Shown here: positions 5,759 through 54,592 of the stretch, in pieces
Layout: every line of letters starts with the position of its first letter
How positions within the stretch are numbered: position 1 is the first letter of the stretch
NCBI GenBank assembly: GCA_965115955.1
Contig: OZ220473.1
Span: forward strand, 2,662,410-2,726,409
Direction: 5' to 3'
From: Dehalococcoidia bacterium
GTDB lineage: Bacteria > Chloroflexota > Dehalococcoidia > Lucifugimonadales > UBA3495
Length of the DNA stretch: 64,000 nt
Translations under genes and position numbers: made by a program
Notes under the pieces: model-generated
Told to the model about the DNA's origin: nothing
What the model saw: the letters and a program-made list of their open reading frames with translations, nothing else
Database searches by the model: none

Positions 5759-6825
5759 ACCTCTGGCGGAATCTCTCTGCCTACACCCTTTCCTGGCGGA
5801 AGATCAGCGAGGCGTTCGCCAGCCATTCCGCTCCACGCCCTGCGCTGGGGATAGTCCTGGCCTTTGGGGCCTTTGCGCTGTTCCTGGCAGTCTCCGGCCG
5901 CAATCCCTTCAATACGCTCCTGGGGGCCTGGAACGGCGTTATTGGCAGTTCATTCGGCTTGAGCGAAGTCGGGGTTACGATGATTCCTCTGACGCTGACT
6001 GCGCTGGCCACTGCCATACCCGCCCGTGTCGGACTGGTCAACGTGGGCGGCGAAGGGCAACTGTACGTTGGCGCGTTGACCGCGACCGGGGCGGCTCTGT
6101 ATTTCCCGACAGAGCAGATATGGCTGATGCTGCCAGTTATGGCCATCGCCGGATGCGCCGGGGGCGGACTGTGGGCCGCCTCGGCAGCCCTGCTGAGGCG
6201 GTGGAGAGGGGTCAACGAAGTCATTTTCACGCTACTGGCAAACTATGTGGCGATTCTGCTGGTGAACGCGCTCGTGTTCGGCCCGTGGAAGAATCCGGAT
6301 GGGCTTGGCTACCCATACACCGCGCCGTTCGACGCAGCGGCCATTTTTCCTGCCATCGCCGGGACGCGGTTTCACTGGGGGTTCCTTGCCCCGGCGATGG
6401 CGCTGCTTGTCGCTTACGTGATCCTGACGCGGACTTTCTGGGGATTCAAGATGAGGGCCATCGGCGGAAACCCGGAAGCCGCGCGCCGGCGGGGCATAGC
6501 AGTAGACAAGTATGTCATGGCTGCCATGGTTGCCGGGGGCGGGCTGGCCGGACTGGCCGGCATGGTGGAAGTATCGGGCATACACCACGACCTGCGTCCG
6601 GGAATCTCGAACAACCTGGGATACCTGGGGCTGCTGGCGAGCTGGCTGGCCGGTCACAACTCGGCGGCAATTGTGGCCGCGTGCTTTATGATTGCGGCGT
6701 TCCTGGTAGCCGGAGACGTGTTGCAGTTGACGGCCGGGTTGCCTTCGTCCGCCGGGCTGATCCTTATTGGCCTGGCCCTGTTCTTGGCGCTTGGCCTGCG
6801 ACGGGCCGGGCGGAGCTCCCTGTGA
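5755..6825 (+). CDS. ABC transporter permease (BMP-family system)
   Basis: 356 aa, polytopic hydrophobic protein. 4-nt overlap with the ATPase stop. Confidence 0.85.
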
Positions 6826-15598: not shown

Positions 15599-15632
15599 TG
15601 ATTCACTGCCTCAGGTGATTCACTGCCTCAGG
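15599..15632. repeat. perfect 17-bp tandem duplication (TGATTCACTGCCTCAGG x2)
   Basis: Read directly from the sequence. Lies in the 71-bp spacer between the SDR stop and the agmatinase start. Confidence 0.95.
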
Positions 15633-27149: not shown

Positions 27150-28094
27150 ATGCCAGAAGTGTACGGCGAAGGCGATTTTCGATACGAGTTCGTTGAGAAC
27201 TGGGCCAAGCTGCCCGAAGGAGTGAATTTCCAGGAATGCCCCGGGGTTGCCTGCGATTCCAACGACAACGTGTTCGTGCTGACCCGCGGCAGGAACCCCA
27301 TTATGGTTTTCGACCGCGACGGGAACTATATGCGTTCCTTCGGCGAAGGGCTGTTCAGCGACAACCGCACTCACGGGCTGTACATCGGCCACGACGACTC
27401 GCTGCTGGCCGCCGACGACGGGATTCACACTATCCAGAAGTTCAGCTCCAACGGCGAGAAGGTTTGGGAACTGGGCGAGCGCAACAACCCGGCCGAACGC
27501 TGGAGCGGCAAGCCGTTCAACCGCCCCACTTCCGCCGCAACCAGACCCAGCAATGGCGACATCTACGTCTCCGACGGCTATGGCAACTCCCGCGTCCATG
27601 TTTACAGCAGCCAGTTGGAGCACAGATTCTCCTGGGGCGAGCCGGGAATTGACGCCGGCCAGTTCATCCGCCCCCACAACATCGCCTTCGACAGCAATGA
27701 TCGGGTCTACGTGGTTGACCGCGAGTGCCACCGTATCCAGATATTCGACGCCGAAGGCAACTTCATCACCATGTGGAACAACATCCACCGGCCCGACTCC
27801 ATGGTGCTGTGGGGCGAGCACATCTACGTCGGCGAGCTGAACGGCATGGGCGGGGTCGACGACGCCCCCGGCCTGGGCCATCGCGTCAGCATCTACGACC
27901 TGGACGGTAATCGGGTCTGCATATTCGGCTCCAAAGATGAAGGTGAAGGTCCCGGTCAGTTCATCGCCCCCCACGGTATCGCCGTAGACTCGCGCGGCGA
28001 TATCTACGTGGCCGAGGTTTCCTACACTATCCGCGGCCAGCACATGAACCCGCCCCGCGAACTCCGCTCGCTGTCCAAGTACCGCCGGGTATAG
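27150..28094 (+). CDS. NHL-repeat beta-propeller protein (peptidylamidoglycolate-lyase-like)
   Basis: 314 aa. Repeated 'G..FNRP/FIRPHNIAFDS...YV.D..N.RIQ.F' NHL-type blades. Confidence 0.8.
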   Translation: MPEVYGEGDFRYEFVENWAKLPEGVNFQECPGVACDSNDNVFVLTRGRNPIMVFDRDGNYMRSFGEGLFSDNRTHGLYIGHDDSLLAADDGIHTIQKFSSNGEKVWELGERNNPAERWSGKPFNRPTSAATRPSNGDIYVSDGYGNSRVHVYSSQLEHRFSWGEPGIDAGQFIRPHNIAFDSNDRVYVVDRECHRIQIFDAEGNFITMWNNIHRPDSMVLWGEHIYVGELNGMGGVDDAPGLGHRVSIYDLDGNRVCIFGSKDEGEGPGQFIAPHGIAVDSRGDIYVAEVSYTIRGQHMNPPRELRSLSKYRRV

Positions 28095-28173
28095 CTCCAC
28101 CACTGATAAGGGTAACGGCGCGGCGCGGCCGTGTCGCGCCGGCATATTCTATAAACCCCAACAAGGAAAAGAC

Positions 28174-28575
28174 GTGGTAACTTACGAAGTTTTTTTCGGA
28201 GCCTCATCGTCGTTCCTGGTGGTAGGAGTTGGAGCCTTCCTCTGGATACTGTCTGAATTCCGGGCAATGCGCCGTGAATTTCGGGAAGAAAACCAGCGGA
28301 CGCGGGAAGAGCTTCGCGAAGAAAATCAGCGGATGCGGGAAGAGTTTCGGGAAGAAAACCAGCGGATGCGGGAAGAGTTTCGGGAAGAAAACCAGCGGAT
28401 GCGGGAAGAGTTTCGGGAAGAAAACCAGCGGACTCGGGAGGAACTGCGCGAAGAAATCCGCGCAAATGCACAGCGAATATTGGAAGCCCTTTACTTCCAC
28501 CGCCATGACACCGACACTGGCGAGGCGGTCTTCTACCCGCCCACATCCACAACACCGGCGCCGCAAGCGGATTAA
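28174..28575 (+). CDS. membrane-anchored protein with six 11-residue charged repeats (REEFREENQRM)
   Basis: 133 aa with a GTG start. One TM helix (FFGASSSFLVVGVGAFLWIL), then the repeat array, then the tail 'ILEALYFHRHDTDTGEAVFYPP'. The repeats are in-frame multiples of 33 bp. Confidence 0.6.
   Translation: MVTYEVFFGASSSFLVVGVGAFLWILSEFRAMRREFREENQRTREELREENQRMREEFREENQRMREEFREENQRMREEFREENQRTREELREEIRANAQRILEALYFHRHDTDTGEAVFYPPTSTTPAPQAD
28270..28467 (+). repeat. 33-bp tandem repeat x6 (coding)
   Basis: Units start at 28270, 28303, 28336, 28369, 28402 and 28435. Units 3 and 4 are identical and unit 5 differs by 2 nt. Consensus CGGGAAGAGTTTCGGGAAGAAAACCAGCGGATG. Confidence 0.95.
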
Positions 28576-28586
28576 GGAGCGATGCT

Positions 28587-29642
28587 ATGACCACGCTGAA
28601 CCCGCCGAAACTGACTGCAATAGAACTGGGGAAAATAGAGCGGGTTGATGACTTGAGGGTGGCTTGGCCCAGAGAAGCGCAAGATTTCACGCCATGGCTG
28701 GCCGAGAACATCGAAGAGCTGGGCGAAGCATTGGGCATGGAACTGGTATCTGAGGGAATGGAAGTCCCGGTAGGCTCCTTCGCGCTGGATGTTCTGGCTA
28801 CCGCTACCGACGTTTCTCAGAACCAGACTGTAGTCATAGAAAATCAACTGGGAACCACAGATCACGACCATCTGGGCAAGCTGTTAACCTACGCCGCCGG
28901 TAAAACCGCTGATGTAATTGTATGGCTGGCAAAGGAGTTTCGAGGCGAACATCGTCAAGCATTAGACTGGCTTAATCAGCGTACTGGAGAGGACTGCCAG
29001 TTCTTCGGCGTAGCTGTGGAGTTATGGAAGATTGGAGATTCTCCGCTCGCCCCGTACTTCAATTTGGTCTCTGCTCCTAACGAATGGAGCAAGCTTCTAA
29101 AAACAGCCCATCCACTCACTGAAGAGGATGAGATGAATTCCGAGTTTCGCAGGTTGCTCATCGAACGTTTCAAACAGGAAGACCCTCTCCTTATGGCCAG
29201 AAAGAGAACTACAGGAACCGGCGGAATAGTAAAAGCCAGATGGCTGTATATAAAATATCCGGTGCCCGAAGTCAAGCATCACCTTAGTTATGTTGCCGTT
29301 TGGCCTAATGGAGATCTTGGCTTCCAGTTCGTATCAGATATAAGAGGCAGAGATGGACTGGGCTGGACTCGAAGGGTTTTCGAGGATCTCGAAAAGCGCA
29401 AAGGGGAGATCGAGGAAAAGGTTCGAGGAGCCGGGCCATCGGAACGGTTTGAGTGGGAACCTGATTGGAAAAAGCAAGGATTCCGAGTAGGTATTTATCG
29501 CAATGACAACGTGTTCCAGTATCCTGATTCTTGGGACGAATACCACGATTGGATAGTTGAAAAGCTCCGGTTATTTCAAGAACATATCGAGCCTCTTCTT
29601 ATGAAGGAATTTTCAGAGCATGAGCAGCGAACCCGTGAGTGA
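28587..29642 (+). CDS. PD-(D/E)xK nuclease-fold protein with DUF4268-like C-terminus
   Basis: 351 aa. 'E..VPVGSFALDVLA...TVVIENQLGTTDHDHLGKLLTYAAG..ADVIVWLA..FR.EHRQALDWLN' is the pattern I associate with the nuclease-like N-domain of DUF4268 proteins. GC is visibly lower (about 50%) than in the flanks. Confidence 0.7.
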   Translation: MTTLNPPKLTAIELGKIERVDDLRVAWPREAQDFTPWLAENIEELGEALGMELVSEGMEVPVGSFALDVLATATDVSQNQTVVIENQLGTTDHDHLGKLLTYAAGKTADVIVWLAKEFRGEHRQALDWLNQRTGEDCQFFGVAVELWKIGDSPLAPYFNLVSAPNEWSKLLKTAHPLTEEDEMNSEFRRLLIERFKQEDPLLMARKRTTGTGGIVKARWLYIKYPVPEVKHHLSYVAVWPNGDLGFQFVSDIRGRDGLGWTRRVFEDLEKRKGEIEEKVRGAGPSERFEWEPDWKKQGFRVGIYRNDNVFQYPDSWDEYHDWIVEKLRLFQEHIEPLLMKEFSEHEQRTRE

Positions 29643-30693
29643 AATCGGCGAAACTACCACCGTCCAATGGGACAGCGCCCTTGAAGCCATCGAGCGGTGC
29701 TACGAGCTGGGCTGGACCGACGGGCTGCCCGTAGTCCCACCCACCGAGGCCCGCGTCGCGGAATTCATCGAGCGCACGGGGCGCCCGCCGGGAGAAGTCG
29801 TCGGCGAACTGCCTGAGCGCCGCCGCGAGATCACCGTAAGCAAGGTGGCGGCCAACGCAGTGATGGCCGGCTGCCTGCCGGATTATATGCCCGTGGTGCT
29901 GACGGCAACCGAGGCCATGCTCGACCCAGTGTTCAACCTGGTTGGGCCATCGTCCAGCATGGGCGGATCGGCAATACTGACCATCGTCAACGGCCCTGTC
30001 GTGCGGGACCTGAACATCAACGCCCGCAACAACCTGTTCGGGCCTGGGAACCGCGCCAACGCCACCATAGGGAGGGCCGTCAGGCTCATTCTGATGAACG
30101 CCTGCGCCGCCATCCCCGGAGTGTTCGACCGCAGCGTTATCGGGCATCCGGGCAAGTACACCTACTGCATCGCCGAGGCGGAAATCGAAACGCACTGGAC
30201 GCCTCTGCACGTCGAGCGCGGCCTGCGCCCAGATCAGAGCGCAGTGACCGTGTTCGCCGGAGAGTCGCCCCGGCAGGTGCGGGCCGTGGGGCGACCGGAG
30301 GCCATACTCTATGCCATCTCAGACGTTGCCTCTACCTTGGGCACCAGCATGTCTACCTCCGGTTCCGTGGGCGAGACGGGAACGGGCGTGCGGCAGGGTC
30401 AGATTGTTGTAACAATCGCCGGAAACTCAGGCCTGTGGCAGAACTGGACCAAAGAACAGGTACGGGACTTCATCTTCCAGAGGGCGCGCCGGACAATGGC
30501 GGAACTAAAGCAGGCTATGGTCCTGGCAGGCGATGCAGGCCCCGGAGATGATGCTGAATCGGTTCCGCTGATTCCCGACCCATCGGACATACTCCTGGTG
30601 TTTGCTGGCGGTGAGGAATCCAATATGTCGTCGGTGATCCCTAGCTGGGGGCCGAAAGTGGCCTGCACGGCCGTTACAAAAGCCATAAACTGA
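29620..30693 (+). CDS. conserved-looking hypothetical protein (no domain recognised)
   Basis: 357 aa with host-like GC. The ATG overlaps the upstream gene by 23 nt. Motifs seen: 'GWTDGLPVVPPT', 'GPSSSMGGSAILTIVNGP', 'NATIGRAVRLILMN'. Confidence 0.7.
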   Translation: MSSEPVSEIGETTTVQWDSALEAIERCYELGWTDGLPVVPPTEARVAEFIERTGRPPGEVVGELPERRREITVSKVAANAVMAGCLPDYMPVVLTATEAMLDPVFNLVGPSSSMGGSAILTIVNGPVVRDLNINARNNLFGPGNRANATIGRAVRLILMNACAAIPGVFDRSVIGHPGKYTYCIAEAEIETHWTPLHVERGLRPDQSAVTVFAGESPRQVRAVGRPEAILYAISDVASTLGTSMSTSGSVGETGTGVRQGQIVVTIAGNSGLWQNWTKEQVRDFIFQRARRTMAELKQAMVLAGDAGPGDDAESVPLIPDPSDILLVFAGGEESNMSSVIPSWGPKVACTAVTKAIN

Positions 30694-30751: not shown

Positions 30752-31294
30752 ATGGCACAGGCAAATGAGCACACCTTGATAAATCCGATAACGCAGCCGG
30801 TAATTGCTCCGTTCAATGGCGCGCCGCGCCTGGCAAGCCTGGCCGGAACCAGACTGGGGCTGATAGACGACAGCAAGCGCAATGCCGACGTTCTGCTGGA
30901 AGAACTGGCGAACCTGTTGCGCACTCGCTACGAAATTTCCACGGTCAAGTGGCTGCGCAAGCCCAGTGCTTCCCGCCCCGCCGACCCGGACGCCCTGAGG
31001 GAGCTGGTTGAGGAGTGCGATTCCGTAATCGTCGCCATAGGAGATTGAGGGTCATGCAGCGCGTGCAGTGTGCACGACGGAATCCATATCGAGAACGCCG
31101 GCATCCCATCGGCCACCATTTGCACTGACCGCTTCGTTCCTACTGCCACCGGCATGGCCCGGATGTGGGGCGCCCCGGACTATCCGACCATCTACACCGA
31201 GCATCCCATCGAGAACCTCGACCGGGACGCGCTCCGGGCCCGCGCCGAGCGGCTTGCTCCGCTGGTCGTGCAGGTGCTGACCGGCGAAGGCTAG
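30752..31294 (+). CDS. probable selenoprotein with UGSCSAC motif (TGA 31046-31048 read as Sec)
   Basis: ORFs 30716..31048 and 31070..31294 share one frame, with no stop other than the TGA between them. ATG 30752 has a GGAGA SD 5 nt upstream. The joined product is 180 aa: '...SVIVAIGD-U-GSCSACSVHDGIHIENAGIP...'. Confidence 0.65.
31062..31076 (+). promoter_or_regulatory. candidate SECIS-like hairpin (CGTGCA-GTG-TGCACG)
   Basis: 6-bp GC-rich stem starting 13 nt after the in-frame TGA. It is short, and no extended lower stem was found. Confidence 0.35.
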
Positions 31295-54520: not shown

Positions 54521-54534
54521 AGACTCTCTCCTAG

Positions 54535-54576
54535 TTGAAACTCCAGGCCGGAAACTCCAAGCTTGAAACTCCAGAG
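54535..54576 (-). repeat. 14-nt-period direct repeat x3 (minus strand: YTGGAGTTTC) in the pyrR leader
   Basis: GAAACTCCAG at 54537, GAAACTCCAA at 54551 and GAAACTCCAG at 54565 on the plus strand. They lie between the attenuator terminator and the pyrR SD. Confidence 0.9.
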
Positions 54577-54592
54577 CGGAACCCGGCAAGGC

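Follow-up and report, generated by a model that had tools for sequence, protein, structure and literature searches.

A small gene in a 64-kb stretch of Dehalococcoidia DNA (contig OZ220473.1; the whole stretch is called the window here, and coordinates count along it) encodes a protein in which a single N-terminal transmembrane (TM) helix and a short, conserved C-terminal module are joined by a charged stalk of 11-residue repeats. From structural models and from the comparison of relatives, we consider it moderately probable that this is a bitopic protein whose hendecad stalk self-associates in parallel, is registered at both ends, and acts as a spacer of tunable length. The most telling result concerns the lengths of the stalk, which vary widely among relatives and fall into a few values that preserve the phase of the helix; the two ends are conserved. 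A first-pass annotation of the same DNA had correctly recognized the small size of the protein, its single TM helix, its charged repeat of 11 residues, and its separate tail. It had missed what is most informative, the hairpin module with its invariant HxH...G...F and the quantization of stalk length by helical phase.

No tandem repeat elsewhere in the window approaches the strength of the array in the small gene. Tandem Repeats Finder placed it at 28279..28439 with a period of 33, 4.9 copies, 92% matches, and a score of 280, while the runner-up among non-overlapping arrays reached a score of only 78. Translated in frame, units 1 to 6 read RREFREENQRT, REELREENQRM, REEFREENQRM, REEFREENQRM, REEFREENQRT, and REELREEIRAN. 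Conservation is good in four to five of these units; units 1 and 6, at the edges of the array, are degenerate. The head-to-tail arrangement and the identities among the central units are as the first-pass annotation gave them (Table 1), and its view that these units are recent also held: the central copies are the youngest, as slippage or unequal exchange predicts. Two further short repeats in the window are listed in Table 1.

We compared the protein with its relatives in two alignments, one of the close clade (A1) and one of diverse sequences (A2), and we counted invariant residues across 81 diverse members. The close clade in A1 showed conserved ends and a gapped middle that could not be aligned, in which both length and unit sequence differ. 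After the TM helix, close-clade members carry SE(F/I)R, and their C-terminal module is nearly invariant, reading QRILEALYFHRHD..G.AVFYPP. Among the diverse members, H109, H111, and G116 were invariant and A105 and F120 nearly so. The wider family has the same plan, with a module that can be written R..N.Q.L.AL.NH.HD.DG.AVF..PP.

Between these ends, the units differ from member to member (REENQRT-type, REENKAELQQV, REEDRRLWQTA, REELRQEIRAT, and REERESDKLER), yet when a stalk is matched against itself the best period in most members is 11 residues; one subclade has a period of 18 (7+11). Strongly hydrophobic residues, when counted back from HxH, fell at phases 3, 7, and 10/0, a 4-3-4 spacing that corresponds to the a, e, and h positions of a hendecad; in the window protein this seam consists of F or L, N, and M or T. 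A pooled hydropathy periodogram peaked at 3.69 residues, and the median peak was at 3.66 residues for the close clade and at 3.62 for distant members. There was more power at 11/3 than at 3.5 in 70 of 76 close-clade sequences and in 98 of 114 distant ones. The hendecad period named in the first-pass annotation is thereby confirmed.

We then took as stalk length the distance between the conserved anchors R30 and H109. The 93 unique stalks had 18 distinct lengths, ranging from 30 to 107 residues. Taken modulo 11, however, 91 of these 93 stalks belonged to classes 8, 4, and 1 and the other two to class 0, and these four classes are neighboring phases on an 11/3 helix. The length spectrum peaked at 3.66 residues, with R = 0.88, versus R = 0.21 at 3.5. 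A heptad model was rejected on the latter value and on the periodogram, in which power at 3.5 was 15% of the peak. Insertions and deletions thus appear to be confined to about 3, 4, 7, 11, or 18 residues, which are whole turns of the seam. For 90 sequences, a crude tree built on the conserved ends gave at least 26 changes of class and at least 49 changes of length, indicating that the permitted classes were hit repeatedly.

The first-pass annotation had suspected that the copy number of the repeat might vary. Variation was found between species, and it is only there that it has been shown. The distance from the end of the TM helix to the start of the C-terminal module is 69 residues in the window protein and 58, 47, 43, and 39 residues in its nearest relatives, and the flanking genes of the nearest relatives have 83-89% DNA identity to the window. 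Stalks of close relatives are two to three units shorter. Near-perfect arrays were present in about 10 of 25 loci, with a 33-bp period (54 bp in locus L002), 92-100% identity, and up to 5.4 copies, and each lineage that bears an array has its own unit sequence. The arrays arose independently in about 10 lineages, and turnover is rapid. Four genomes (L002, L003, L007, and L014) also harbor two or three head-to-tail tandem paralogs that differ in length. Their ends are nearly identical and their stalks unequal, so that the three copies in L007 encode 82, 116, and 94 amino acids. Small open reading frames (ORFs) adjoining locus L025 were rejected as paralogs.

Several observations indicate that the ORF is a real gene under strong purifying selection. 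The first database search returned 115 homologs of 78-157 amino acids, and the chromosomal position was conserved in all 25 syntenic Dehalococcoidia loci that we compared. We calculated the ratio of non-synonymous to synonymous substitution rates (dN/dS) on the conserved ends only. Over 42 codons of these ends, the window and L001 differed by 13 synonymous changes and 1 non-synonymous change, and dN/dS was 0.02-0.3 in most of the 21 pairs with unsaturated synonymous sites, with a value of 0.44 in one pair. A purine-rich box precedes the start in most of the aligned loci. Two antisense ORFs (28022..28738 and 28204..28566) also overlap the array; the purifying selection falls on the plus-strand frame, and these antisense ORFs are by-products of the repeat.

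The structure was predicted from alignments of two depths. With 81 sequences, AlphaFold2 returned a model with a mean predicted local distance difference test (pLDDT) score of 95, consisting of a helix from residue 4 to 107 followed by a hairpin, and residues 101-120 had a pLDDT of 94. With 27 sequences, it returned one helix (residues 3-110) and a low-confidence tail. The TM helix is modelled as running unbroken into the stalk. In the hairpin, HRH is modelled to pair with AVF around the invariant G116, and the Pro-rich tail follows; if the two histidines lie in a strand, they are on the same side. The predicted helix would be about 12 nm long in the window protein and about 4.5-16 nm across the family, with 1.65 nm contributed by each unit. 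The number of Lys and Arg residues beside the TM helix averaged 0.23 on the N-terminal side versus 2.07 on the C-terminal side, and the C-terminal side was higher in 160 of 190 members. This distribution predicts an N-out/C-in topology, with the short N-terminus outside and the stalk in the cytoplasm.

We propose that several chains associate in parallel along the apolar seam, and that the bundle would be a hendecad coiled coil, almost straight or with a slight right-handed twist. Parallel self-association is the best explanation we have for a thin apolar seam combined with a constraint on phase. A stalk made of repeats could slip out of register, and the TM helices would fix one end while the hairpin cap would fix the other. 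If both ends must face the axis of the bundle, the stalk could change only by 3, 4, 7, 11, or 18 residues. Slippage during replication, or unequal recombination between 33-bp units, would alter its length quickly, and the resulting spacer would keep the cap and the Pro-rich tail a defined distance away from the cytoplasmic face of the membrane. We also speculate that pairs of HxH motifs may be clamped by a metal.

By analogy, such a cap might act as the foldon does in phage T4 fibritin. That viral protein is a soluble trimer whose long parallel coiled coil contains heptad segments, and a small C-terminal beta-hairpin unit sets registration and oligomerization of its chains. The likeness lies in the single modelled beta-hairpin per chain directly after the helix, with an invariant glycine, G116, in its turn. 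Unlike fibritin, the small protein is membrane-anchored, cellular, and hendecad-based; neither sequence nor Foldseek similarity to the viral protein was detected, and the comparison used a monomer model.

A number of points weigh against this proposal. The structure prediction covers a single chain, and the positive-inside rule is the only ground for the predicted topology. The seam is thin, occupying 2-3 of 11 positions, one of which is often Asn, and the sequence by itself would also be compatible with a monomeric helix. The narrower anchor pattern that was used first, with 15 distinct lengths, gave R = 0.91, which not one of 5000 random sets of lengths attained, but this random-length null is too generous in that duplications of 11 residues preserve the class unaided; a conservative estimate of the chance that four occupied classes are adjacent in phase is 11/330 = 0.03. 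The count of 26 class changes comes from a tree built by the unweighted pair group method with arithmetic mean (UPGMA) from only 45 residues. Metal binding by the histidines is speculation, and with no conserved partner gene the target of the cap is a guess.

The monomeric alternative is a stable single alpha-helix, a spacer of the ER/K type in which the 11-residue period would record only the history of duplication. The stalk has a suitable composition (61% charged residues, almost all of them E and R), and AlphaFold2 gives a straight, isolated helix with very high confidence. Stable single helices, however, depend on a large excess of attractive charge pairs, whereas the intrahelical i/i+3 and i/i+4 pairs of this stalk are balanced, with 27 attractive and 27 repulsive. 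In addition, the a/e/h apolar phase is fixed across lineages whose unit sequences are unrelated, and lengths are limited to phase-preserving values, which a free spacer would not need. We therefore regard a monomeric helix as unlikely.

The first-pass annotation had likened the 11-residue period to the helices of apolipoproteins, LEA3 proteins, and synucleins, and an amphipathic helix of that type would lie on the membrane or another lipid surface. The 11/3 periodicity itself is present. Some distant members had sub-threshold matches to PF01442, and there were further such matches to PDB chains of ApoA-I. The window protein itself had no PF01442 match, the best relative scored 30 bits against a cut-off of 90, and the PDB E-values were 0.009 or worse. 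Chemically the comparison fails, as only 15% of stalk residues are strongly hydrophobic (ILMFVWY), and the stalk averages -1.0 in hydrophobicity with a hydrophobic moment of 0.44, values that, with the high charge, are far from those of a surface-seeking helix. A stalk that continues from a TM helix would also project away from the bilayer. Lipid-surface binding is thus a very improbable role for this helix.

Weak matches to DUF2570 (22.1 bits), phrog_214 (E = 8e-5), and phrog_739 (E = 4e-4) raised the question of whether this is a phage lysis protein, such as an Rz-like spanin of the inner membrane, in which an N-terminal TM helix would be followed by a coiled coil in the periplasm. The first of these is below the Pfam cut-off of 26.6, the matches span only the TM and charged helix, and the short member P0072 had no match. 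No relative was found when alignment A1 was searched against 2.9 million viral contigs. The gene lies at a core-chromosome locus amid metabolic genes in 25 genomes, without a holin, an endolysin, or an outer spanin, and the predicted N-out/C-in topology is opposite to the N-in/C-out topology of a spanin. A lysis function can hardly be entertained on these grounds.

We hold it to be just as remote that the protein is a divergent b subunit of the F-type ATP synthase or another stator stalk of a rotary ATPase, although subunit b has the same layout. It has one N-terminal TM helix, N-out, that is continuous with a long cytoplasmic hendecad helix, and its hendecad apolar seam forms a right-handed coiled-coil dimer (PMC6131620). 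This textbook case also contradicts the first-pass statement that a hendecad helix with one TM segment is unusual in bacteria. Matches to subunit b models were weak, with 14-17 bits in NCBIfam against cut-offs of 127-156 and PDB chains at E = 0.24-0.79. There are no atp genes nearby, up to three tandem paralogs occur per genome with lengths of 78-157 amino acids, and the C-terminus is a 12-residue hairpin with a Pro-rich tail and not a delta-binding domain. Unlike the stalk of subunit b, that of the small protein derives from recent tandem repeats, spans a four-fold range of length, and ends in a short HxH hairpin.

Least probable of all, and close to negligible, is that the frame is not a gene or that the array is an assembly artefact, a possibility raised in the first-pass annotation: two units are identical, so that the exact copy number in the assembly needs reads, and an exact look-up did not find the window protein on record, but purifying selection on the frame is strong, the near-identical core spans no more than 99 bp and has distinguishable units on either side, and like arrays occur in complete long-read chromosomes (for example L018, with 5.4 copies at 100% identity).

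Two other kinds of protein resemble the registered, self-associating stalk that we favor. YhcB/ZapG (DUF1043) is anchored by an N-terminal TM segment, self-associates through a helical region in the cytoplasm, and has a short conserved stretch at its C-terminus. It shares the small bitopic plan, and one distant member of the family weakly matched PF06295, with 18 bits versus a cut-off of 33.5; the taxa differ, however, and YhcB has neither repeats nor length variation nor an HxH hairpin. Streptococcal M proteins and the Braun lipoprotein Lpp, a periplasmic spacer, are extracytoplasmic heptad rods in which the number of repeats sets the length, length changes by recombination between repeats, and length is a functional parameter. 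Repeat number sets the length of the rod in the small protein too, but this rod is predicted to be cytoplasmic, is hendecad-based, and has strictly conserved sequences at both ends.

The family is rare and has no Pfam or NCBIfam model and no solved structure. When a close-clade profile was searched against 1.84 billion representative proteins, only 106 reached E <= 0.001. A second search of the whole database with the diverse alignment added members, which with those hits make up the wider family, and gave no informative name; nor did any other source. A few proteins of 360-400 amino acids in JGI data that matched through the charged helix carry the label 'ATP synthase b'. Searches of Pfam, NCBIfam, PHROGs, and PADLOC with the window protein and with short and distant members returned only sub-threshold matches to the charged helix, in agreement with the first-pass statement that no family was recognized. 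Eight isolated C-terminal modules had zero matches in the curated libraries. A PDB profile search gave a best E-value of 0.0013, with the hairpin module uncovered by any match, and a Foldseek search of the confident model against the PDB returned nothing at E <= 0.001. The family is undescribed, whereas bitopic proteins with a hendecad stalk are already a known structural kind.

When one genome per species was scanned, 24 loci were found, every one of them in a metagenome-assembled genome of Dehalococcoidia or Chloroflexota; several of these genomes are complete long-read chromosomes and some are sponge bins. Close relatives were also present on Tara metagenome scaffolds. The close clade occurs in marine and sponge-associated Dehalococcoidia. 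The gene order is threonine synthase, thiolase, GMC oxidoreductase, glyoxalase, NHL-repeat protein, small gene, an optional gene, an unknown protein of 357 amino acids, and UGSC selenoprotein. In the close clade this is ordinary core-genome synteny, and no conserved partner gene was found; distant members lie in unrelated neighborhoods. The ortholog in L023 (about 5953..6231) has an in-frame stop within the region that encodes the TM helix in other loci, reading HGNS, stop, SLRRGLVLVASLGAGAF..., and may be a pseudogene or have a later start.

Between the upstream NHL-repeat gene and the small gene there is a GC-rich hairpin. Hairpins of differing sequence, likewise GC-rich, occupy the same site in every locus examined (L001, L004, L005, L009, and L013). 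They lie about 30-60 nt upstream of the small gene, with stems of 11-18 bp, z-scores of -2.5 to -9.1, and no T-run, so that what is conserved is structure and position, not sequence. The hairpin in the window is probably a terminator or an element that marks a transcript boundary or processing site. A scan of 27950..28750 for promoter and terminator consensus sequences yielded nothing useful.

The neighboring genes had features of their own. The NHL-repeat gene, which had a sub-threshold match to ScyF, has 87-89% DNA identity across species versus 83-84% for the GMC oxidoreductase gene, a conservation that is unusually strong for the region. The optional gene begins 11 nt 3' of the small gene and matched PADLOC PDC-S11, a candidate anti-phage gene, over its full length (E = 6e-90); it also matched phrog_27742 (E = 9e-21) and, below threshold, Pfam DUF4268. 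It is present in only 15 of the 25 syntenic loci, at 66-71% nucleotide identity, far below that of its neighbors, which suggests an accessory gene inserted at this spot. The gene for the 357-residue protein overlaps it by 23 nt, is found in 23 of the 25 loci directly 5' of the UGSC gene, and had no match in Pfam, NCBIfam, PHROGs, or PADLOC; its product may be a functional partner of the selenoprotein. In the UGSC gene, an in-frame TGA (31046..31048) splits the listed ORF, and the protein reads ...VIVAIGD-U-GSCSAC.... With U replaced by C, it matched NCBIfam NF041046 with E = 1.7e-46 and 157.9 bits, against a cut-off of 125. A simple fold of 31040..31100 gave no convincing selenocysteine insertion sequence (SECIS) hairpin.

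Table 1. Positions of the small gene, its parts, and other features of the region (window coordinates; paralog clusters by locus)
Feature	Position	Strand	Details and evidence
Coding sequence of the 133-residue protein, stop codon included	28174..28575	+	GTG start; ORF list, homologs, dN/dS
Shine-Dalgarno-like AAGGA	28163..28167	+	6 nt 5' of the GTG; read from sequence
N-terminal TM helix, about residues 5-27	28186..28254	+	Invariant F22 and W24, then SEFR; A1, AlphaFold2, flanking charges
Six in-frame 33-bp units, 11 residues each	28270..28467	+	Portion of the stalk that varies
Youngest core of the array	28336..28434	+	Units 3 and 4 identical in DNA; unit 5 differs by 2 nt (ATG to ACT)
C-terminal module QRILEALYFHRHDTDTGEAVFYPP, residues 100-123	28471..28542	+	A1, A2, motif table
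Predicted beta-hairpin	28498..28533	+	Strand HRH 109-111, turn DTDTGE, strand AVF 118-120; AlphaFold2
Pro/Thr/Ala-rich tail, acidic last residue, YPPTSTTPAPQAD	28534..28572	+	A1; block pLDDT 78
GC-rich hairpin, 11-bp stem	28116..28141	+	Follows the stop codon of the NHL gene and precedes the small gene; RNA fold
Paralog clusters	L002 6001..6821, L003 5564..6381, L007 5986..6889, L014 5652..6282		
NHL-repeat gene	27150..28094	+	
PDC-S11-like gene	28587..29642	+	
Gene for the 357-residue protein	29620..30693	+	
UGSC-family selenoprotein gene	30752..31294	+	
Further repeat, perfect 17-bp unit, two copies	15599..15632		Score 68
Further repeat, 28-bp unit, two copies	54528..54581		Score 78

Returning to the self-associating, registered stalk, a bolder extension of it is possible but doubtful: the family would be one of length-programmable rulers, in which slippage that preserves phase rapidly retunes the cytoplasmic reach of a membrane-anchored hendecad coiled coil, held in register by a TM bundle and a possibly metal-clamped HxH cap, and paralogs set several distances per cell. 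If this were true, selection for register in coiled coils would be readable directly from genome data, and the family would hint at a membrane-proximal structure in Dehalococcoidia whose spacing matters. Whether or not that extension holds, the stalk is an unusually clean natural data set: dozens of independent indels all keep the 11/3 phase between the anchors. They are direct evolutionary evidence of a selected non-heptad register, and they suggest a design principle for repetitive rods, in which the ends are fixed and the middle varies by whole turns. The family is under strong purifying selection and is conserved in position in abundant, uncultured marine and sponge-associated Dehalococcoidia, and if the protein is a spacer, it would follow that a distance on the inner side of the membrane is important to these organisms.

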